Source: Enterobacteria phage KhF1. Taken from it: a DNA stretch of 64,000 bases. The stretch lies in the sequence record KT184313.1. One strand, given 5' to 3'. The position numbers and the translations under genes were made by a program. The notes beneath the pieces are model-generated. The model worked only from the letters and a program-made list of their open reading frames with translations. It was not told the origin of the DNA and ran no database searches. The stretch's first letter is position 1. Each line of letters starts with the position of its first letter. Shown piece by piece: positions 4,798 through 62,203 of this stretch.

Positions 4798-5220
4798 TTA
4801 TTTCTCTCTCAGTTGGTTAAGTTTCTTTCTAGAACATTTTAAGTTTTCGGATGAAGAAAAGTCAAGTGTCTTTTCAGAACGTGGATAATAGTGTCTATCC
4901 CAAGAAGTTTCAACATCGTTAATCAGTGACGCTAGATTACACAGGTCTGTACCACTTTGCAATCTCTTTTTAAGAGAATCTAGTAAAGCAACTGTGTCTT
5001 TAGCTTTACGTCTCGCTGTAGCAACATCTTTCATATGCTCAAATACAGAGCATTTTAAGTCATCTTCATAGTTTTCAGACAACTCTATTTCATGTTGTAT
5101 ATCAACCATTCTCCTGTGATGGTGAGCATATTCCCGTTGAGCAGCAATGTCAAGTTCTTCCAACTTCTGCAAAGCTCTAACAAAGTCAGCTATGTCTGGG
5201 TGAACAAACATTTTCTGCAT
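4798..5220 (-). CDS. hypothetical protein
   Basis: ORF track, 140 aa; first gene of minus-strand operon diverging from the polymerase gene. Confidence 0.5.
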   Translation of the reverse strand: MQKMFVHPDIADFVRALQKLEELDIAAQREYAHHHRRMVDIQHEIELSENYEDDLKCSVFEHMKDVATARRKAKDTVALLDSLKKRLQSGTDLCNLASLINDVETSWDRHYYPRSEKTLDFSSSENLKCSRKKLNQLREK

Positions 5221-40267: not shown

Positions 40268-40343
40268 TGGAGAATCCGAAGGGACTCGAACCCTTATAAA
40301 CCTGTTTTGCAGACAGGCACATAGCCATTTCTGTCACGGATTC
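40268..40343 (-). tRNA. tRNA-Cys (anticodon GCA)
   Basis: Acceptor GAATCCG/CGGATTC, T-arm AAGGG-TTCGAGT-CCCTT, anticodon loop CTGCAAA, CCA encoded. Confidence 0.7.
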
Positions 40344-40347
40344 AAAT

Positions 40348-40440
40348 TGGAGGAAGATACCAGACTTGAACTGGTACACCGATTTCTCAGCTACTGGCAG
40401 TTTAGCAAACTGCTCCCTTACCTTTTAGGGTTAATCTTCC
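40348..40440 (-). tRNA. tRNA-Ser (anticodon GCT), long variable arm
   Basis: T-arm ACCAG-TTCAAGT-CTGGT, anticodon loop TTGCTAA, about 90 nt. Confidence 0.6.
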
Positions 40441-40441
40441 A

Positions 40442-41176
40442 TTATTTCTGTAATGCGTTCTTCATTTCTGGTGTTGCAATAGTGTCAATCACACCAGTTT
40501 TACAAGCATCATCAAACCAGTCTGGTAAGATACCTGCTAAGAACCCATTGATATTCGTTTTAAGGTACTCTGCAATAAGGGCAGCTTCTTCTTCAATCAT
40601 CTGCACAACTTCATCTGCATAAGCTGTAATCTTTGAGATACCTTCATTAATCTTACTGACAGCTTGGTTAGCTAAATCAGAAACAGTATCAAGACCCTTA
40701 TCAATAGCATCTTGTAAGTCACTTAACACACCATTAACACTATCTAGTGTACTGTTCATCATGTCAATAGCTTTTTGACCATACTCTGTAGCAACACCCA
40801 TAATACCACTGAATGGTGTACAACCAACTTGTTCTCCTGCTGCACCCATAACATTGGAGTATCCCTTTGCTACCTGCATACGTGATGAAAACTCATCAAT
40901 AGACTTTTGACCGTAGTCTGTTAGGGTCTTAGTAGTTGCTGTAGTGCTTGTAAGGCTTGTTGTAAAGCTGTTTAGAAGGACTGTTGTAAGTCCAGCAGCA
41001 ACAAGTTTCTCCTTCATTGTAGGGTCTGTTACAGAGCTAATAGAGCTTACAAGTGATGTAGAAGCAGCTACGGTTCCACCGAGAACTGCTGCACCAGTAA
41101 TAAGTGGGTTAGAGAACCCTTTACCGGTTTTTAAGAGATTAAAAATCTCCTTACCTTGTTCTGTCATCTCTTTCAT
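40442..41176 (-). CDS. hypothetical Ala/Thr/Ser-rich protein inside tRNA cluster
   Basis: ORF track; start moved to internal ATG at 41176 because the annotated start would overlap tRNA-Phe. Confidence 0.45.
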   Translation of the reverse strand: MKEMTEQGKEIFNLLKTGKGFSNPLITGAAVLGGTVAASTSLVSSISSVTDPTMKEKLVAAGLTTVLLNSFTTSLTSTTATTKTLTDYGQKSIDEFSSRMQVAKGYSNVMGAAGEQVGCTPFSGIMGVATEYGQKAIDMMNSTLDSVNGVLSDLQDAIDKGLDTVSDLANQAVSKINEGISKITAYADEVVQMIEEEAALIAEYLKTNINGFLAGILPDWFDDACKTGVIDTIATPEMKNALQK

Positions 41177-41192
41177 TAAGCACCTTTGAAAT

Positions 41193-41269
41193 TGGTAGTC
41201 CAGTGGGATTTGAACCCTCTTCTCATGTTTTTCAGACACGCGCTTTAACCATATAAGCTACTTGGACTA
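41193..41269 (-). tRNA. tRNA-Phe (anticodon GAA)
   Basis: Acceptor pairing, GGGTTCAAATCCC T-arm, anticodon loop CTGAAAA. Confidence 0.6.
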
Positions 41270-41274
41270 TAAAT

Positions 41275-41350
41275 TGGGGTGACCTACGGGATTTGAACCC
41301 GTATAGACCATGTTCACAGCATGGGTCATTACCATTTATGATAAGGCCAC
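41275..41350 (-). tRNA. tRNA-His (anticodon GTG)
   Basis: Acceptor GTGGCCT/AGGTCAC, anticodon stem CCATG/CATGG, loop CTGTGAA. Confidence 0.7.
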
Positions 41351-41381
41351 ATTTAAGGACTCTCGTAAGAATCCTTAGAAG

Positions 41382-41457
41382 TGGCAGCGGCATAAGGATT
41401 TGAACCTTAATAGGACAGCTTCAGAGACTGTTGCATTGCCAGTTATGCTATACCGCT
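41382..41457 (-). tRNA. tRNA-Gln (anticodon CTG)
   Basis: Acceptor AGCGGTA/TGCCGCT, T-loop TTCAAAT, anticodon loop CTCTGAA. Confidence 0.6.
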
Positions 41458-41462
41458 AAATT

Positions 41463-41534
41463 TGGTACTCCATATCGGATTCGAACCGATACATAACACA
41501 GATTTTAAGTCTGGCCTCTCTGCCAATTGGAGTA
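41463..41534 (-). tRNA. tRNA, short and atypical, isotype undetermined (anticodon possibly TAA)
   Basis: Acceptor ACTCCAA/TGGAGT, T-arm ATCGG-TTCGAAT-CCGAT; anticodon arm does not parse cleanly. Confidence 0.45.
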
Positions 41535-41543
41535 ATGGAGCAT

Positions 41544-41618
41544 TGGCGGGGGATGTTGGAATTGAACCAACTTCTTCGATTTCAAAGACCGAGGTTTTAA
41601 CCTTGTAAACTAATCCCC
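41544..41618 (-). tRNA. tRNA-Gln (anticodon TTG), tentative
   Basis: T-arm GTTGG-TTCAATT-CCAAC, anticodon loop CTTTGAA; acceptor pairing imperfect. Confidence 0.5.
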
Positions 41619-41627
41619 TTTAAATCT

Positions 41628-42185
41628 TTACTTTCTCAGTGGATGAATAAAGAATGCCAACATAACTCTTTCCCTTGAGAATGCTCTTTCTTCTGGGACA
41701 ACACTTTTTAGTTTCCATCCAATATAAATTCTCCAGTAAAACTGTTTACCAAAGACTTTAATTGATGGGATAAAGGCGAATAATCCCCAAGCATTACTGT
41801 TCCACATTAGGAGATAACCAGTCTGATTATCTTCAGGGTCAGAACTTACGTTGATATTACCTTTCCACTTAGTAACATCTTTTACATCTCTTCCTAATAC
41901 ATGGTAAGAGAAGTTATAAGCTTTGTTTCTCCAGAGCCATCCGACTCTTTGCATGTAGACGCCTAGTTTACCAATCCATCTAATATTAGCCCATCTTTTA
42001 ACGTGACCTTCATCACCATCAATTGGGTTGTCATATGTCTCCATCCATCTGAACCCGAAAGGTAAGTGTCCTTTCTTCTCACTGTAGAATGGAACTACAA
42101 AAGGTGCTAAGATAACTGCTAAGATTGCTGCAAATGGCTCTAACAAAGCTAAGAAAATCCATGAAACATATTTTAAGTATCTCAT
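41628..42185 (-). CDS. integral membrane protein
   Basis: N-terminal hydrophobic helices WIFLALLEPFAAILAVILAPFVVPF; Trp-rich. Confidence 0.5.
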   Translation of the reverse strand: MRYLKYVSWIFLALLEPFAAILAVILAPFVVPFYSEKKGHLPFGFRWMETYDNPIDGDEGHVKRWANIRWIGKLGVYMQRVGWLWRNKAYNFSYHVLGRDVKDVTKWKGNINVSSDPEDNQTGYLLMWNSNAWGLFAFIPSIKVFGKQFYWRIYIGWKLKSVVPEERAFSRERVMLAFFIHPLRK

Positions 42186-42424
42186 TGTCTAACCCTCGTA
42201 AGGAGGTAAGCATTATTATTTGTTTCTGAGCTTTCTGGTAACATTGTCTCAAAATTGACGCTTTTAAGTTGTCTTCCACCAAAGCAATGACCAATAAATC
42301 TTTCTACTTTTATTGGGTCGCATTCCCATCCGACTTTCAAGAAAATGTGGGTATCTATAGTGGGAACCCTTACAAACTCAATACTATTGGGATTTTCATG
42401 TTCAACGACGATTAATGTTTGCAT
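42182..42424 (-). CDS. hypothetical protein
   Basis: ORF track; ATGA overlap with downstream membrane-protein gene. Confidence 0.45.
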   Translation of the reverse strand: MQTLIVVEHENPNSIEFVRVPTIDTHIFLKVGWECDPIKVERFIGHCFGGRQLKSVNFETMLPESSETNNNAYLLTRVRQ

Positions 42425-42441
42425 AAATTCCTCTTGCTTAT

Positions 42442-42517
42442 CTGGCGCAGGATAAGGGATTCGAACCCCTATTAACAGCTTCGTAGACTGTTGCTCTATC
42501 CATTTGAACTAATCCTG
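42442..42517 (-). tRNA. tRNA-Arg (anticodon ACG)
   Basis: Acceptor GCAGGAT/ATCCTGC, T-arm GGGGTTCGAATCCC, anticodon loop CTACGAA. Confidence 0.7.
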
Positions 42518-42522
42518 CAAAA

Positions 42523-42600
42523 TTGGTGTTCCAAGACGGATTCGAACCGTCACTAGTACAAGGTTTGAGCTTGCATCCTCTGCCAATTGGGATACTGGAA
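42523..42600 (-). tRNA. tRNA with anticodon CAA (Leu-type anticodon on a short-variable-arm body)
   Basis: Acceptor GTTCCAG/TTGGAAC, T-arm GACGG-TTCGAAT-CCGTC, anticodon loop CTCAAAC. Confidence 0.5.
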
Positions 42601-42601
42601 C

Positions 42602-42677
42602 ATGGTACTCACTAAAGGACTTGAACCTTTTTCTTCATCTTGTAAGGGTGATGTTTTACCATATAAACTAAGCGAGT
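42602..42677 (-). tRNA. tRNA-Val (anticodon TAC)
   Basis: Acceptor TACTCGC/GTGAGTA, T-loop TTCAAGT, anticodon loop CTTACAA. Confidence 0.55.
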
Positions 42678-42681
42678 ATGA

Positions 42682-42768
42682 AAGAGGTCTGGAGTTGTGC
42701 CGCTAACTCAACTCCGTGGAATTTGTTACGGTCTTCAGTTGACTCAAAGCGGTCTTTCACTTGACCTC
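42682..42768 (-). ncRNA. tRNA-sized structured element, not a canonical tRNA
   Basis: 7-bp terminal pairing AGAGGTC/GACCTCT encloses a 7-bp hairpin GGAGTTG/CAACTCC; no TTCGA T-loop. Confidence 0.35.
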
Positions 42769-42772
42769 TGAA

Positions 42773-42848
42773 TTGGTGCTCCCACAAGGATTCGAACCCT
42801 GATAAGTTGCTTACAAGGCAACCGTAATAGCCAATTATACGATAGGAG
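42773..42848 (-). tRNA. tRNA-Thr (anticodon TGT)
   Basis: Acceptor GCTCCTA/TGGGAGC, anticodon stem GTTGC/GCAAC, loop CTTGTAA. Confidence 0.7.
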
Positions 42849-42855
42849 CATTAAT

Positions 42856-42931
42856 TTGGAGCATCCAGAGGGAATCGAACCCTCAACCTCAGTTTGGAAG
42901 ACTGTAATTTTCCCGTTTAAACTATGGATGC
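42856..42931 (-). tRNA. tRNA-Gly (anticodon TCC)
   Basis: Acceptor GCATCCA/TGGATGC, T-loop TTCGATT, anticodon loop CTTCCAA. Confidence 0.65.
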
Positions 42932-42936
42932 ACTAA

Positions 42937-43012
42937 TTGGTGGAGTCACTGAGAATTGAACTCAGTTCCCAAGTTTGCAAAACTCGAATTTTAACCATAT
43001 AAACTATGACCC
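42937..43012 (-). tRNA. tRNA-Ala (anticodon TGC)
   Basis: Acceptor GGGGTCA/TGACTCC (G3-T70 wobble), anticodon loop TTTGCAA. Confidence 0.65.
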
Positions 43013-43018
43013 CAATGT

Positions 43019-43095
43019 TTGGTACAGGTGGAGGGAATTGAACCCATCGTCTTACTGATTAAGAGTCAGCCGCATAACCATTTTGCTACACCTGC
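43019..43095 (-). tRNA. tRNA-Lys (anticodon CTT)
   Basis: Acceptor GCAGGTG/CACCTGT, anticodon stem GCTGA/TCAGT, loop CTCTTAA. Confidence 0.55.
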
Positions 43096-43101
43096 ATTAA
43101 T

Positions 43102-43180
43102 TTGGTGGGAGACAAGGGATTCGAACCCTCAAACACCAACTTCTAAGGATGGTAGGTTTACCAATTACCGTCAATCTCCC
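43102..43180 (-). tRNA. tRNA with anticodon TAG (Leu-type anticodon on a short-variable-arm body), tentative
   Basis: Acceptor GGGAGAT/GTCTCCC, T-arm GAGGG-TTCGAAT-CCCTT, anticodon loop CTTAGAA. Confidence 0.45.
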
Positions 43181-43438
43181 ATTAAATCTTTTTAGAGAAC
43201 TTCTAAGAACCTAAGCAACAAGGTTCCACAACAAGCTGTAATAACCTTAGAAGCCCTCTAAAAAGACCTAAAAAGGTCTTTGCATAGTCTTGTTTAATCC
43301 GGTGACTAGAACCTTTGGAGAGCTTGATATTATCTCTTCTCCGTGACACCTACTAGGTGCTTTACTGTGCGTGTACGACAATACACGAGGGATACCAAAG
43401 CAACATCCGAATGAAGCTTGGCTTTAAAATCTTATTAG

Positions 43439-43526
43439 GCGGTAAGTAAAGGAGTCGAACCCTCACCGTATCTCTACAGTGGCAACAGTTTTCAAGACTG
43501 TTTGGCTGCCATTAGCCGCTACCTAC
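43439..43526 (-). tRNA. tRNA-Ser (anticodon TGA), long variable arm
   Basis: Acceptor GGTAGGT/ACTTACC, anticodon stem ACAGT/ACTGT, loop CTTGAAA, about 88 nt. Confidence 0.6.
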
Positions 43527-43539
43527 CCCTAATAAGACT

Positions 43540-43622
43540 TTGGCATGGGACGGAGGAGTTGAACCCCTTTGAAACGGTTTTGGAGGCCGTTGCTCATGCC
43601 TTAGAGTCTTAACATCGTCCCA
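43540..43622 (-). tRNA. tRNA, atypical; possibly tRNA-Trp (anticodon CCA) with extended D region
   Basis: Acceptor GTGGGAC/GTCCCAT, T-loop TTCAACT, candidate anticodon loop CTCCAAA; about 8 extra nt in D region. Confidence 0.45.
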
Positions 43623-43774
43623 CACTATAATTCGAAGCTTACCCTATTATCTCAACACTGTAAAGCCCCTTCTCAGATTATTTACATGTTCTGGAAAACA
43701 TGAGATACAGACCACCTCCCTACAGGAAGACCCGCTTAGGTCGTATAAGTAATCTGCTAACTATTTGGCACACC

Positions 43775-43842
43775 CTACAGGATTCGAACCTGTAACTAAC
43801 GATTTAGAAGACCGTTGCTCTATCCAATTGAACTAAGGGTGC
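43775..43842 (-). tRNA. tRNA-Arg (anticodon TCT)
   Basis: Acceptor GCACCCT/AGGGTGT, T-arm ACAGG-TTCGAAT-CCTGT, anticodon loop CTTCTAA. Confidence 0.65.
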
Positions 43843-44088
43843 ATTAATCTTTAAAGACTCTCTTAGAAAGCCCTTAAAGATGCCCACCTTATTAATCATA
43901 CCGTGGGCGAGTACGCCAAATTCTTTGATGAGGGATTGGAAGACCTCACTGGTGTTTAGCCTATCAAGCTACTGCCAGAAAAACATTGTCGTTTGCATTT
44001 ATTTTAAATTTGCAAAATAGACGCTACGCAACGAAAACTAAGGTTACTATAAAGTGGTCACATCTCAATGTCAACAACTTTATTGAAA

Positions 44089-44164
44089 TTGGTACTGGTA
44101 GGTGGAATCGAACCACCGATGTTCCCTTATCAGGGGAGTGTTATAACCTTCTTAACTATACCAG
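44089..44164 (-). tRNA. tRNA-Ile (anticodon GAT)
   Basis: Acceptor GCTGGTA/TACCAGT, T-arm GGTGG-TTCGATT-CCACC, anticodon loop CTGATAA. Confidence 0.7.
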
Positions 44165-44165
44165 C

Positions 44166-44243
44166 TTGGAGGTTCAGATGGGAATCGAACCCACATTCAT
44201 AGGGCTTATGAGACCCTTGCATTACCTTATCTGCGACTGAACC
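44166..44243 (-). tRNA. tRNA-Met (anticodon CAT), copy 1
   Basis: Acceptor GGTTCAG/CTGAACC, anticodon stem AGGGT/GCCCT, loop CTCATAA. Confidence 0.65.
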
Positions 44244-44246
44244 ATT

Positions 44247-44322
44247 TTGGTAGAAGTGGAGGGATTCGAACCCATCGCCTGTCAGATTAAAAGTCTGCCG
44301 CATCACCATTCTGCTACACTTC
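44247..44322 (-). tRNA. tRNA-Lys (anticodon TTT)
   Basis: Acceptor GGAAGTG/CACTTCT, T-loop TTCGAAT, anticodon loop CTTTTAA. Confidence 0.6.
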
Positions 44323-44325
44323 CAT

Positions 44326-44469
44326 TAAATTATCTTTGTAGATAAGCTACCCAGACTTGCTTAAGGTCTGTAGCGATGTGCCTTGTTGGGTTTAAATCTA
44401 GAATTTACCCTTTCACCCTTTGTGGTCGCATACTCACAGGTAAGCTTAATAACTTATCTACAAAGATAA
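44326..44469. repeat. 19-bp perfect inverted repeat pair (AATTATCTTTGTAGATAAG) enclosing about 106 nt
   Basis: Arms at about 44326-44344 and 44451-44469 are exact reverse complements. Confidence 0.6.
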
Positions 44470-44470
44470 T

Positions 44471-44602
44471 TACCAGACCGTTGTTTATCATCTTAAGTGC
44501 TACCATTACACCAACTCGACATCTGCCGAGTGAAGGAATCGAACCTTCGCCTTTTCTTTACCGAGAAATAGATTGTTTAAGTTTTGCTGTAAACGGTCTT
44601 CT
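44471..44602 (-). ncRNA. tRNA-like domain in permuted (Y RNA-like / YrlA-like) arrangement inside a long closing stem
   Basis: On minus strand: T-arm GAAGG-TTCGATT-CCTTC, acceptor-like 7-bp helix ACTCGGC/GTCGAGT capped by a 4-nt loop, D-arm GTGT-AATGGTA-GCAC, CTTAA/TTAAG helix, outer stem AGACCGTT/AACGGTCT. Confidence 0.45.
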
Positions 44603-44615
44603 GTAAATTTGTTGA

Positions 44616-44691
44616 GCCAGACCAAGTTTTAAATTTTTCAAAATTAAATTGGCTTGAAATTTTCATACGTTCTTGCTGTATTTGGTCTTCT
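44616..44691 (-). repeat. spacer hairpin element, family member 2 (CCAGACCAA ... TTGGTCTTCTG)
   Basis: Same conserved arms and TTGCTGTA block as 44471..44602 but AT-rich interior. Confidence 0.5.
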
Positions 44692-44752
44692 GCTCCTTTA
44701 AAGGATACTCGTAAGAACCCTTTAAGGGAGGGGCTAAATAGCCCTCTCAAAA

Positions 44753-44829
44753 TTGGCGGCTACGATGAGACTTGAACTCACATCATCTCCCGTGACAGGG
44801 GAGTATTTTCTCCAGTTAAACTACATAGC
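44753..44829 (-). tRNA. tRNA-Asp (anticodon GTC)
   Basis: Acceptor GGCTATG/CGTAGCC, T-loop TTCAAGT, anticodon stem CTCCC/GGGAG, loop CTGTCAC. Confidence 0.7.
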
Positions 44830-44834
44830 CTTTA

Positions 44835-44922
44835 TTGGTGTGCCGTGTAGGAGTCGAACCTACCGAGTCTCAATGACAAGGGATTTACAGTCCCCACCGC
44901 TACCATCTACGGGATAACGACA
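44835..44922 (-). tRNA. tRNA-Tyr (anticodon GTA), long variable arm
   Basis: Acceptor GTGTCGT/ACGGCAC, T-arm GTAGG-TTCGACT-CCTAC, anticodon loop CTGTAAA. Confidence 0.65.
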
Positions 44923-44930
44923 CATTTAAT

Positions 44931-45007
44931 TTGGCGGTTAGTCAGGGATTCGAACCCTGTGCCATTCGCTTAACAGGCGACCGCACATACCTTATGTGCT
45001 TCCTAAC
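44931..45007 (-). tRNA. tRNA-Asn (anticodon GTT)
   Basis: T-arm CAGGG-TTCGAAT-CCCTG, anticodon loop CTGTTAA. Confidence 0.65.
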
Positions 45008-45020
45008 CATGTTTAGTATT

Positions 45021-45085
45021 ACCAGACCGTATATTTCAATTTTTTCCGCTAAAAATTTAATAAATATTGCTGTAAACGGTCTTCT
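45021..45085 (-). repeat. spacer hairpin element, family member 3 (CCAGACCGT ... AACGGTCTTCTG)
   Basis: Conserved arms and TTGCTGTAAACGGTCTTCTGTAAA block. Confidence 0.5.
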
Positions 45086-45091
45086 GTAAAT

Positions 45092-45167
45092 TTGGAGGCG
45101 GGTGCAGGAGTCGAACCTGCCGATACCATGCTAATGAGACATGTGAGACGCCCTTTCTCTATACCCG
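45092..45167 (-). tRNA. tRNA with anticodon CAT, copy 2 (initiator, elongator Met or Ile2 undetermined)
   Basis: T-arm GCAGG-TTCGACT-CCTGC, anticodon stem CATGT/GCATG, loop CTCATTA. Confidence 0.6.
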
Positions 45168-45179
45168 CAATTCTTAATG

Positions 45180-45251
45180 ACCAGACCAAATATCTTCTTT
45201 GTCCGATTAACTTTCAGATGAGTAGATTAAGTTTGCTGTAATTGGTCTTCT
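45180..45251 (-). repeat. spacer hairpin element, family member 4 (CCAGACCAA ... TTGGTCTTCTG)
   Basis: Conserved arms and TTGCTGTAATTGGTCTTCTG block. Confidence 0.5.
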
Positions 45252-45258
45252 GTCAAAA

Positions 45259-45336
45259 CTGGCGTTCCAGAAGGGATTTGAACCCTCAAATATCCACTTT
45301 GAAAGAGTGGTGACTTTACCATTTTGTCTACTGGAA
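45259..45336 (-). tRNA. tRNA-Glu (anticodon TTC)
   Basis: Acceptor GTTCCAG/CTGGAAC, anticodon stem CCACT/AGTGG, loop CTTTCAA. Confidence 0.7.
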
Positions 45337-45343
45337 CATTAAT

Positions 45344-45423
45344 TTGGTCTCCGTTGAAGGATTTGAACCCTCGACCCCTTGCTCCCAAAGCAAGTGCTGC
45401 TAAACCAAACTGAGCTAAACGGA
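45344..45423 (-). tRNA. tRNA-Pro (anticodon TGG)
   Basis: Acceptor CTCCGTT/AACGGAG, anticodon stem CTTGC/GCAAG, loop TTTGGGA. Confidence 0.7.
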
Positions 45424-45542
45424 GATAAACTTTTCAAACTCTATGTAACCACTTTAACATTATTTTTTAGTGATTGTCAAGAACTTTTTTAAAATATTTT
45501 TCAGTATCTTAGAAAAGCTCTCATTTCGTTTCTATGTAGAAC

Positions 45543-45571
45543 ATATTAAAGGGTATTAAACACATTGTCAA
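45543..45571 (-). promoter_or_regulatory. sigma70-like promoter reading into the tRNA cluster (TTGACA, 17 nt, TAATAT)
   Basis: Reverse complement reads GGTA-TTGACA-atgtgtttaataccctt-TAATAT; sits inside inverted repeat GGGTATT...AATACCC. Confidence 0.6.
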
Positions 45572-45589: not shown

Positions 45590-47005
45590 TTACCAGATAT
45601 AACGGTCAATCATTACTGCTTTGAGCATTACACTGATTGGGTCAAACTTCTCACCACCAAGCAGAGCTTTTAAAGTGGCTGGAGAGAACCCTGATACCAT
45701 TGCTACACCGTTATCCTTAACAGATACTTCGCAAGTACCATTACGGTTTGCTAAGTACCAGAATACCAGTTGTGGCATCTCATATCCAGCTTTTTTGTAC
45801 TTACTCTGAATTGCTTCAAAGTTTGTACGTCCGTTAGCTCCATCAACCTGATTGAACTCCATATCGGAGAAGATGATAAGCTTACTTGGCATATCTTTCT
45901 GAGTCAAGTTGTTTCTTTTACCTGTTTCAAGAATGCGGTCAAAAGCTGCTTGTAAGTTAGTTGAGCCATATTCAACGTGTCGCATCACCTGACGATGACG
46001 GTTTCGTAAATCACCACTCAATTCGATGAAATGAGGGTTTGTTGAATAAACCATTAACTCGTTCTTAAAGCAACCTGTATTGCGTTCTGCTACATACAAG
46101 GCAAGGGATACACCAATATCAAGGGCAGTGATTGAACCAAGATTCACCCAAGACATTGAGCTTGAAACATCAGTCATACACAGGATGTTTTCACCTTCTG
46201 CCATCCAGTTTGGTAGTGCTTTCCACTGCTCATTAGCAACATCTGCATTACCATACTTGATAGATTTAATCACATCGTATGGATAAACAGCACCAGCATT
46301 AATCTTAGTCTCGCCCTTTGATAAGGACTCAATGTAAGATTTGTAGCGTTCTCCATCTTTACGGTTAAAGAGTTTTTGGTAACGTGCAGCAGCAAGTGAA
46401 GGAATCTTACTGTAGTCGATATTACCAAACTCATTAGCAGAGATTTTTTGTTCAACTGTATCAGATAGTGCAGACAGCAGTGTGCGGTACTCTTTCTCAC
46501 TCAAGTTTGCAAACTTGCAGAAACGTTTTACAAACTGTTTGTGACGTGGTTTTACTCGTGGTAACCACTTAGCTGCTAAACCTGCTGTTGCAGGGTCTAG
46601 TAATGCTGCTTCTAAATGTTTGAAGGCATCTGTCTCGAAACGAGTACCTACAAAGATTTTGAAGTCATCAAAGCGACCAAGCTCTGCAATCTTATCCATA
46701 ATGCGAAGAACCTGCGTAGGTTCTAAAACTTTATCTTCAATCGCTTGAAGTAAAACAGTTCGGAAAGCTTTACGCTCACCCATACCTTCTCGTACATCTC
46801 GCATATGCAGTAAAATACGAACTGCAACATCAACATCCTCATGCAAAGCTTTGTATAACAAGTCTGGTAAGATTTCTACATTGCTACGGCTGGAACCAGC
46901 AGCTTTGTAAAAGTCCACAAGAGCAGACATTGATGAAGTATGGTTTACAGCACCATTTTCAGTTCGACCTGCATGAAGGTGCGCATGTTTAAATAATTCG
47001 CTCAT
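45590..47005 (-). CDS. von Willebrand factor A (MIDAS) domain protein with N-terminal helical domain
   Basis: MIDAS-like DVSSSM (DxSxS) at about residue 275 and downstream IIFSDMEF; N-terminal 270 aa unassigned. Confidence 0.65.
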   Translation of the reverse strand: MSELFKHAHLHAGRTENGAVNHTSSMSALVDFYKAAGSSRSNVEILPDLLYKALHEDVDVAVRILLHMRDVREGMGERKAFRTVLLQAIEDKVLEPTQVLRIMDKIAELGRFDDFKIFVGTRFETDAFKHLEAALLDPATAGLAAKWLPRVKPRHKQFVKRFCKFANLSEKEYRTLLSALSDTVEQKISANEFGNIDYSKIPSLAAARYQKLFNRKDGERYKSYIESLSKGETKINAGAVYPYDVIKSIKYGNADVANEQWKALPNWMAEGENILCMTDVSSSMSWVNLGSITALDIGVSLALYVAERNTGCFKNELMVYSTNPHFIELSGDLRNRHRQVMRHVEYGSTNLQAAFDRILETGKRNNLTQKDMPSKLIIFSDMEFNQVDGANGRTNFEAIQSKYKKAGYEMPQLVFWYLANRNGTCEVSVKDNGVAMVSGFSPATLKALLGGEKFDPISVMLKAVMIDRYIW

Positions 47006-61690: not shown

Positions 61691-62203
61691 TTAGTTCTTA
61701 AAGATATTCATCACTGAGTCTTTTAATGATTCCAAACGTTCTAATACTTCAGATTCTGCGTCTGAGTTGTTCACTTCTTCTTTCAGTCTGTCATCTAAAT
61801 CATCGCCGTCACTATAGCACCAATCGAAAGCGTAACCAATATAAAAACTGTCTAAAATTGTTTGACCATTTGCATCGACAACTTTCGCGGCAAGGTTGTA
61901 TTCTGAAGCCTCTAAATCTCTTTCTAATTCTTTCTGTAAGCTTGTGTAAGCCTCTTTTGATGGATTTTCCCGGCCTTGTTTTGCATAGTCACTTGAAAGC
62001 TGTTTAAGGCTGTAATGTAAAGGGATTGCATATTTAAATTCATTACGCTGACAGTTAGGATTTTTAACAGTCACGCCGCCTTGATGGTCATCTGTAAACT
62101 TCCAATTATCAAGATTATGGCTTGCTTCGTAGCAATTAACAGCTTCGTAAATGATGGAAAATTTTTCTTTTACAACTTCAAAGGTAGCGTCTACAGTTTT
62201 CAT
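61691..62203 (-). CDS. early-type hypothetical acidic protein
   Basis: Preceded by type B leader. Confidence 0.55.
   Translation of the reverse strand: MKTVDATFEVVKEKFSIIYEAVNCYEASHNLDNWKFTDDHQGGVTVKNPNCQRNEFKYAIPLHYSLKQLSSDYAKQGRENPSKEAYTSLQKELERDLEASEYNLAAKVVDANGQTILDSFYIGYAFDWCYSDGDDLDDRLKEEVNNSDAESEVLERLESLKDSVMNIFKN

Follow-up and report, generated by a model that had tools for sequence, protein, structure and literature searches.

In the transfer RNA (tRNA) cluster of Enterobacteria phage KhF1 (record KT184313.1), analysed here in a 64,000-nucleotide (nt) stretch of DNA (the window), 26 tRNA genes are detected by a standard tool and one further tRNA-like element has an anomalous D region. 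The reading we favour, at a probability of about 0.6, is that this element is a restructured tRNA-Trp, so that the cluster would supply tRNAs for all 20 amino acids, and that its leucine tRNAs come from long-arm ancestors. Sequences, structures, conservation and covariation were determined directly, and charging and decoding are inferred from them. Judged by sequence identity, the window is a Felixounavirus (Felix O1-like) genome: its 5.3-kilobase (kb) tRNA region is 94-97% identical to many Felixounavirus genomes (subfamily Ounavirinae), and at least 80% of the region is covered in 233 of the 368 matching phage records. The cluster as such is already known, being a feature of this phage group that is annotated in many GenBank records. 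The clusters in those records have an identical gene set and order at 94-97% identity, and the three short leucine genes discussed below are labelled there as plain tRNA-Leu; they differ in that the Trp candidate carries no tRNA annotation among the matches listed. In the literature we found no description of short-arm tRNA-Leu in phages or of oddities among Felix O1 tRNAs. The armless tRNA-Leu and the restructured tRNA-Trp thus appear to be unremarked variants, for which a function is plausible.

The 26 genes reported by ARAGORN all lie on the minus strand, between positions 40268 and 45424, and cover 19 amino acids, tryptophan being the only one without a tRNA. Together with the Trp-like element they make 27, the approximate number of minus-strand genes that an original prediction, made by eye, had given; its statement that CCA is generally encoded also holds, since CCA is present in 25 of the 26 genes and in the Trp-like element, the exception being tRNA-Ser(UGA) at 43438-43527. 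The Rfam tRNA model, at its gathering score, passes 24 of the 26 and misses tRNA-Tyr at 44836-44923 and a CAU tRNA at 45093-45169. The prediction had allowed that its oddities were either misparsed by eye or genuinely atypical; the leucine genes and the Trp-like element turn out to be atypical, and a supposedly short gene at 41463 was misparsed. Because ARAGORN itself confirms the short leucine variable regions, and because the Trp-like element is both non-canonical and covarying, the tool output does not return conventional structures for all of them.

Structure and conservation of the Trp-like element

The tRNA-Trp candidate, recognised by folding and covariation, occupies positions 43541-43623 (minus strand, 83 nt). 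The original prediction had it one position off, at 43540..43622, and had rightly noticed its anticodon loop, CTCCAAA in the DNA and CUCCAAA in the RNA, as well as about 8 extra nt in the D region, which we find between the acceptor stem and the D hairpin. The element is conserved in 235 phage records, and among the matches listed none annotates it as a tRNA: the position carries no feature, a small hypothetical open reading frame (ORF) or, in one record, a promoter. Its sole Rfam match is to the tRNA-Sec model, which scores 23 bits (E 0.4) where the threshold is 47.

Eight distinct variants of the element were compared, from Felixounavirus, Mooglevirus, Suspvirus, and Pectobacterium and Yersinia phages, and RNAalifold and single-sequence folding converge on one cloverleaf with four helices. 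The acceptor stem has 7 base pairs (bp), or 8 if G8 pairs with C65, and is followed by the connector GAUGUUAAGA, which extends for about 10 nt from G8 (9 nt single-stranded if G8-C65 forms), is invariant in all eight variants and departs from the canonical two-nucleotide connector (U8, N9). The D hairpin consists of 3 bp, CUC-UAAGGCAU-GAG, with a GG-containing loop and a middle pair that changes on both sides. In the anticodon arm there are five Watson-Crick pairs, after which a C.A mismatch closes the loop CUCCAAA (or, read otherwise, the loop has 9 nt); this mismatch is C.C in the Pectobacterium and Yersinia phages. The variable region is 5 nt long, the T stem has 4 bp, the T loop is UUCRAMU (UUCAACU or UUCGAAU), and G73-CCA is encoded at the 3' end. 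The acceptor and T stems make up a 12-bp stack, as 8 + 4, or as 7 + 5 with an A49.C65 mismatch.

This fold is supported by covariation: all 20 pairs are standard in all eight variants (160 of 160 cells), and eight of them are compensated. None of 500 shuffles reached the observed pairing or covariation score, and when the 3' partners were slid by 1-3 columns the pairing fell to 33-54% and no compensated pair was left. Three forms of the anticodon stem are seen (AACGG/CCGUU, GUAAG/CUUAC and GUAGG/CCUAC), the U-A pair of the D hairpin flips to A-U, a G-C pair of the T stem becomes U-A in Sf13, and pairs 1-72 and 2-71 are changed in the Pectobacterium and Yersinia phages. While the stems vary in this way, the anticodon and the connector are invariant and the remainder of the anticodon loop is nearly so. 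Two other parses were rejected. A low-threshold ARAGORN result, a long-arm tRNA with the four-base anticodon 'agca' and broken stems, was set aside for the covariation-supported fold, and an alternative D stem, UGUU/AGCA around a 16-nt loop, is broken in half of the variants by a change of A32 to U that is compensated in the CUC/GAG hairpin.

Identity and origin of the Trp-like element

Most probably the element is a derived tRNA-Trp, with which the set of 20 is complete. We read it as such because the set lacks a tRNA for tryptophan alone and no other candidate fills that place, because it has identity elements of tRNA-Trp, because it shares its anticodon arm with other phage tRNA-Trp genes, and because of the matches of its covariance model. 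Bacterial Trp identity lies in the anticodon CCA, G73, G5-C68 and A1-U72, of which the last two are minor elements (PMC9976931). The anticodon CCA and G73 are invariant in all eight variants, G5-C68 is likewise present in all eight, and pair 1-72 is A-U in five, G-C in two and G.U in the window copy. The motif GGC-CUCCAAA-ACC, with its C.A closing mismatch, is common to the element, the tRNA-Trp of Erwinia phage phiEa21-4 and the annotated tRNA-Trp of phage T5. A covariance model made from the element aligns with ordinary tRNAs when seven connector positions are skipped, and the Trp tRNAs of phiEa21-4, of a jumbo phage and of T5 are among its best outside matches.

The canonical tRNA-Trp of phiEa21-4 (Kolesnikvirus, same subfamily) has GGC-CUCCAAA-ACC, G73 and A1-U72 in common with the element, and it differs in being 76 nt long, with a standard 2-nt connector and a GUUU/AAAU D stem, in its position in the cluster and in having no encoded CCA. 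Its connector is UA and its D arm GUUU-AACUGGCA-AAAU, where the Felix-type sequence reads GAU-GUUA-AGACUCU-AAGGCAU-GAGC. From this comparison we suggest that about 7-8 nt were inserted into the D loop of an ancestral tRNA-Trp, that the inserted CUC would have paired with the old 3' strand of the D stem, GAG, to form the new D hairpin, and that the old 5' strand, GUU, would have been stranded in the invariant 10-nt single-stranded connector. As the anticodon arm, G73-CCA and the 12-bp acceptor/T stack are kept, the product should still be charged by tryptophanyl-tRNA synthetase (TrpRS) and read UGG. In IMG/VR, a scan that used the anticodon and T arm as anchors gave no intermediates lacking the insertion and returned one unrelated jumbo-phage tRNA-Trp, and a scan with exact 14-mers gave mostly chance matches and only a few new variants.

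The tRNA-Trp of T5 (T5t20, 71 nt, NC_005859) resembles the element in its anticodon arm GGGC-CUCCAAA-ACCC with the C.A closing mismatch, in its encoded G73-CCA, in a non-canonical D region and in being missed by ARAGORN. It differs in that its D arm is shrunken (3 bp and a 5-nt loop), whereas the Felix-type element has a D hairpin of normal size and a connector that is 8 nt longer. The D regions of phage tRNA-Trp genes seem, from these sequences, to be unusually plastic. The T5 gene (NC_005859 35177-35247) also has a U1.U72 mismatch.

A restructured tRNA-Trp would mean that the phage set covers 20 amino acids and not 19, and that phage tRNAs are under-counted by standard tRNA finders. A functional element would also widen the range of connector lengths tolerated by the bacterial ribosome and TrpRS.

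Leucine tRNAs with short variable regions

The three genes with leucine anticodons, all on the minus strand, are tRNA-Leu(UAA) at 41463-41541 (79 nt including CCA, 7-nt variable region, D loop AAUUGGCAG), tRNA-Leu(CAA) at 42524-42601 (78 nt, 5-nt variable region) and tRNA-Leu(UAG) at 43103-43180 (78 nt, 4-nt variable region, D loop AAUUGGUAA, 3-nt connector). According to ARAGORN and the alignment, the long variable arm of class II tRNAs (at least 10 nt with a stem) is absent from all of them. Two short-arm leucine genes, CAA and UAG, had been predicted at 42523..42600 and 43102..43180, and both are real with coordinates off by one; the UAA gene had been overlooked as the third. It had been taken for an unusually short tRNA at 41463..41534, which was a boundary error, with the 5' end drawn 7 nt too far in.

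ARAGORN assigns the isotype Leu to all three, and A73, A14, A15-U48, G18G19 and A20a are found in each by direct reading and alignment. Every one has a Leu-type D region, in which a stem of 3 bp carries the loop A14 A15 U U G18 G19 Y A20a, and a variable region that ends in U48. The long-arm phage tRNA-Leu used for alignment came from T5, Pectobacterium phage Wc4-1 and two IMG/VR contigs. Against these, the short genes can be matched over their whole length, with one interruption of 9-12 columns that falls precisely on the variable arm, and A14, A15, G18, G19, A20a and A73 are conserved. The notion that they are mislabelled tRNAs of another family is ruled out by A73 and the Leu-type D region. 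These tRNAs would thus have descended from ordinary long-arm (class II) tRNA-Leu after loss of the variable stem-loop.

Loss of the long arm of tRNA-Leu has been described only for animal mitochondria (PMC9976931). The determinants of the leucyl-tRNA synthetase (LeuRS) of Escherichia coli are A73, A15-U48, G18G19 and A20a, and neither the anticodon nor the long arm matters for leucylation in E. coli, armless variants being still active (PMC9976931). Since this set of elements is kept in the three phage genes, the natural inference is that host LeuRS charges all of them with leucine. The phage genes resemble animal mitochondrial tRNA-Leu and engineered armless E. coli variants, which are charged without the long arm through A73, A14 and tertiary elements of the D and T loops (PMC9976931); they differ in being natural and in residing in enterobacterial cytoplasm, where they would be charged by a host LeuRS of class II type. 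The phage armless tRNA-Leu is in this respect an exception to the textbook rule.

The three tRNAs would read UUA, UUG and CUN, the leucine codons that are preferred in the phage. In 40 long ORFs of the window the leucine codon fractions are CUU 0.29, UUA 0.28, UUG 0.13, CUA 0.11, CUC 0.05 and CUG 0.13. In E. coli, CUG is the preferred leucine codon, and those that the phage favours are little used. Leucine codon use of the phage fits a supply role for these tRNAs.

The leucine genes are evidently under selection, judging by their conservation. In 215 of 263 matching phage records, Leu(UAA) is kept at an identity of 99% or more. Leu(UAG) has several alleles, whose anticodon stems are quite different yet still paired, and a second, unrelated short-arm Leu(UAG) allele occurs in sister phages. 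Armless leucine tRNAs are also present in other phages: phiEa21-4 has three, Yersinia phage P778 two, Aeromonas phage Akh-2 (Demerecviridae) one, and Wc4-1 one short beside one long; an unrelated IMG/VR contig (L101) has a long UAA gene and a short UAG gene whose D arm is almost the same. The leucine tRNA of phage T5 is of the long-arm kind. A blastn search of E. coli genomes with the Leu(UAA) and Trp elements as queries gave no match, a result that is uninformative since both are too short for the size of the database. The occurrence of natural armless tRNA-Leu in Felix O1-type phages and at least two other phage lineages, with enterobacterial LeuRS as the presumed partner, bears on the rules of tRNA identity and is relevant to the design of compact or orthogonal tRNAs.

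Two side observations concern these genes. In an IMG/VR copy of an 84,419-bp Si3-like Salmonella phage (L048), positions 5124-5202 hold a chimeric leucine gene whose 5' part is Leu(CAA) and the rest Leu(UAA), which implies, on the face of the sequence, a deletion by recombination between two similar leucine genes. The record of Staphylococcus phage SA1 (GU169904.1) contains, at about 62026-62103, a sequence with 100% identity to the Leu(UAA) gene of the Felix type, and the Trp element has a match in this record as well, which suggests that it may be chimeric or contaminated.

Alternative explanations

Several points weigh against the reading proposed above. ARAGORN at default settings does not report the Trp-like element and the Rfam tRNA model RF00005 does not match it; the window copy has G1.U72 in place of the A1-U72 identity pair; the folding energy is unremarkable (z = -1.3); and, the eight variants being from related phages, several of the compensatory cells may share few events. 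To our knowledge, no functional tRNA of a bacterial system has a 10-nt connector between acceptor and D stems, and in such a structure the usual U8-A14 contact may be lost. In addition, the anticodon stem of Leu(UAG) in the window contains a U.U mismatch, and A37 takes the place of G37. Phage tRNA genes are reportedly mostly non-essential on laboratory hosts in the case of the Felixounavirus Bas63. The preprint on this phage (10.1101/2024.10.10.617714), by which the tRNA genes are mostly dispensable there, is counted here on the negative side, although it neither supports nor refutes a function.

The most serious rival, which we consider clearly less probable than a decoding tRNA-Trp though far from negligible, is that the Trp-like element is a structured, non-decoding tRNA mimic, kept by selection and neither charged nor used on the ribosome. 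Such a mimic could be a processing signal in a polycistronic tRNA precursor, a decoy for a host nuclease that targets tRNAs, or a ligand of the phage Ro60-like protein described below. The non-canonical 10-nt connector and the failure of tRNA finders to detect the element would agree with this, as would the presence in the same cluster of other tRNA-like RNAs that are not tRNAs, beside the Ro60-like gene. The tRNA cluster of T5 holds annotated 'tRNA-like stable RNAs with unknown functions', and for Bas63 it has been speculated that some 'tRNAs' are Y RNAs (10.1101/2024.10.10.617714). However, the decoding needs of tRNA-Trp are all kept, namely CCA in a U33/A37 loop, G73 and the encoded CCA end; the element is the only candidate for the missing amino acid; it does not have the closing-stem module of the four Y-RNA-like units of the cluster; and its anticodon arm is common to bona fide phage tRNA-Trp genes.

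A different proposal, which we regard as unlikely, is that the armless leucine tRNAs and the restructured tRNA-Trp are adaptations that hide phage tRNAs from host defences that cleave tRNAs, or from phage activity against host tRNAs, while recognition by the synthetases is kept. It would add a reason to the explanation favoured here and would not replace it. Phage tRNAs are known to escape anticodon nucleases by sequence changes (PMC10264068), and there are defence systems that cut tRNAs (PMC12916289). The recurrence of short-arm leucine tRNAs in separate lineages (three Ounavirinae genera and unclassified relatives, the Demerecviridae phage Akh-2 and the IMG/VR contig L101) would also be in keeping with it, but Wc4-1 and L101 retain a long-arm leucine tRNA beside the short one. 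Nor do we know of any nuclease that recognises the variable arm of tRNA-Leu or the D region of tRNA-Trp, which counts against this proposal.

That the Trp-like element is a decaying tRNA-Trp pseudogene, persisting because the cluster around it is conserved, is already disfavoured and in our estimation very improbable; simple decay is unlikely to have given the pattern seen. The D-region insertion, the mismatches at 31.39 and 49.65 and the silence of annotation tools might be taken as marks of decay. But in Felixounavirus, Mooglevirus, Suspvirus and the phages of Pectobacterium and Yersinia alike the four helices are 100% paired, and eight pairs are compensated; the connector and anticodon stay invariant, and the anticodon loop nearly so, while the stems change; and the C.A mismatch is also found in the canonical tRNA-Trp of phiEa21-4 and in that of T5.

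A change of identity, by which the short-arm leucine tRNAs would deliver a different amino acid at UUR or CUN in the manner of yeast mitochondrial tRNA-Thr(UAG), is scarcely credible. In its favour, animal mitochondria are the only other place for which loss of the class II arm is described (PMC9976931), and there are precedents for CUN reassignment (reviewed in PMC7609411). But A73 and the Leu-type D loop are kept, there is no G3.U70, the genes align with long-arm tRNA-Leu, and the alignment of leucine codons with homologs gives it no support. In the gene at 45590-47005, compared with distant homologs (one gene, and hence a small sample), each type of leucine codon aligns mainly with leucine (39-62%), the control codon CUG falls in the same range, and UUA, UUG, CUA and CUU align with leucine as often as CUG does. 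There is accordingly no sign of recoding at leucine codons in this sample, and UGG aligns with tryptophan in the same homologs.

A Ro60-like gene and Y-RNA-like units in the cluster

Directly upstream of the tRNA cluster, on the minus strand at 45590-47005, lies a gene for a protein of 471 amino acids, which Pfam assigns to DUF2828 and DUF7788 and whose product is predicted to have a Ro60 fold (TROVE and vWA), from a structure model with a predicted local distance difference test score (pLDDT) of 89 and its comparison with PDB. The top 12 PDB matches of the model are all Ro60/TROVE proteins (E 1e-8 to 1e-6) and include Xenopus and human Ro60, Deinococcus Rsr and a Thermus phage Ro60. A phmmer search of the protein against PDB sequences gave no match, and Ro60 was found by fold comparison only. 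The Bas63 ortholog, gp130, was noted to resemble Ro60 and is reported to counter the Ppl defence, and some annotated tRNAs of that phage were guessed to be Y RNAs (10.1101/2024.10.10.617714).

Four repeat copies (repeat families D4 and D6) are found in the window, in unannotated spacers of the cluster and not among the annotated tRNAs. These are unit 1 at 45175-45257, unit 2 at 45016-45091, unit 3 at 44611-44697 and unit 4 at 44467-44608, all on the minus strand and all identified by repetition and covariation, with an RNAalifold consensus in addition for unit 4. All four share a closing module, in which an outer helix of 4 bp is followed by an internal loop with AGA on the 5' side and G on the 3' side, then by the inner helix AGACCnn/nnGGUCU, after which comes the conserved sequence UWCAGCAA. 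Across 35 distinct variants the 11 pairs of this module are standard with the exception of one cell (an A.C), and covariation is seen at five pairs. Inside the module of unit 4, the RNAalifold consensus places a V-like hairpin, a T arm, an acceptor-like hairpin of 7 bp with a cap, and a D arm. Three different sequences of the acceptor-like hairpin exist, with three compensated pairs between them. None of the units matches any Rfam family.

Bacterial Y RNAs of the YrlA type mimic tRNA and are encoded beside Ro60 (PMC4201824). Unit 4 has the same arm order as YrlA-type RNAs, with V, T arm, capped acceptor-like stem and D arm inside a terminal stem, and a gene with a Ro60 fold adjoins here as it does with Rsr, the four units lying 0.3-1.1 kb downstream on the same strand. 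They differ from the YrlA type in that the stem motif of the phage, C-AGA-AGACC, is similar to and not the same as the published GNCGAAN0-1G (PMC4201824), in that four units stand in tandem among tRNA genes, and in that the phage protein belongs to Pfam DUF2828 and not to TROVE. We therefore propose the four units as candidates for Y RNAs of the phage Ro60-like protein; they would be concrete candidates for a protein that the preprint reports as an anti-defence factor.

Taken together, one may imagine that the Trp element works on the E. coli ribosome in spite of a 10-nt connector and an 8/4-type stack, that all leucine tRNAs of the subfamily have adopted a class I shape, that both were selected as being invisible to defences that target tRNAs, with charging by host synthetases retained, and that the four new Y RNAs serve the anti-Ppl Ro60 of the phage. 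We offer this combination as a speculation, to which only a low probability should be attached.

Other tRNA genes and spacer elements

Except where stated, the remaining tRNA genes of the cluster, all on the minus strand, are detected by both ARAGORN and Rfam. In order of coordinates, the first are tRNA-Cys(GCA) at 40268-40343 (Rfam 56.4 bits), the long-arm tRNA-Ser(GCU) of 93 nt at 40348-40440, tRNA-Phe(GAA) at 41193-41268, tRNA-His(GUG) at 41275-41350 and two glutamine tRNAs, Gln(CUG) at 41382-41457 and Gln(UUG) at 41544-41619. These are followed by tRNA-Arg(ACG) at 42443-42518, tRNA-Val(UAC) at 42603-42677, tRNA-Thr(UGU) at 42774-42849, tRNA-Gly(UCC) at 42857-42931, tRNA-Ala(UGC) at 42938-43013 and tRNA-Lys(CUU) at 43020-43095. 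Beyond tRNA-Ser(UGA), which has a long arm (ARAGORN), and the Trp candidate come tRNA-Arg(UCU) at 43766-43842, tRNA-Ile(GAU) at 44090-44165, a tRNA(CAU) of elongator Met or Ile2 type with U73 at 44167-44243, and tRNA-Lys(UUU) at 44248-44323. The last are tRNA-Asp(GUC) at 44754-44830, the 88-nt, long-arm tRNA-Tyr(GUA) that ARAGORN reports and that stays below the Rfam tRNA threshold, tRNA-Asn(GUU) at 44932-45008, tRNA-Glu(UUC) at 45260-45337 and tRNA-Pro(UGG) at 45345-45424.

The second CAU tRNA, the initiator-like gene at 45093-45169, is real despite having no Rfam tRNA match. It has a 1.72 mismatch, U73 and a pyrimidine, U37, and we accept it because its acceptor stem is like that of the annotated T5 tRNA-fMet and because its T stem covaries among relatives.

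Further structures and signals were noted in the spacers. The hairpins at 43182-43271 (26-nt arms, 85% complementarity) and 43847-43881 (17-nt arms) may be processing or termination sites, and a weak match of the former to a miRNA-precursor-like Rfam family signifies merely a long hairpin. Strong matches to sigma-70-like promoters (10-11 of 12 positions) occur on the minus strand at 44046-44074, 45451-45480 and 45543-45571, inside and just upstream of the cluster; they suggest that there may be several transcription units, with a total site count that is not above the shuffled expectation. At tRNA-Ser(UGA), within 43426-43541, the 5' leader, which is also the trailer of the Trp candidate, pairs with the 3' trailer over 14 bp and extends the acceptor stem, and this predicted pairing may be a structure for precursor processing. 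On the minus strand at 44324-44475 lies an element of 152 nt, branched inside and closed by a terminal stem of 24 bp (minimum free energy -48 kcal/mol, z = -5.8), whose sequence differs in sister genera and whose stem arms, in the alignment, appear to change in a compensatory manner.

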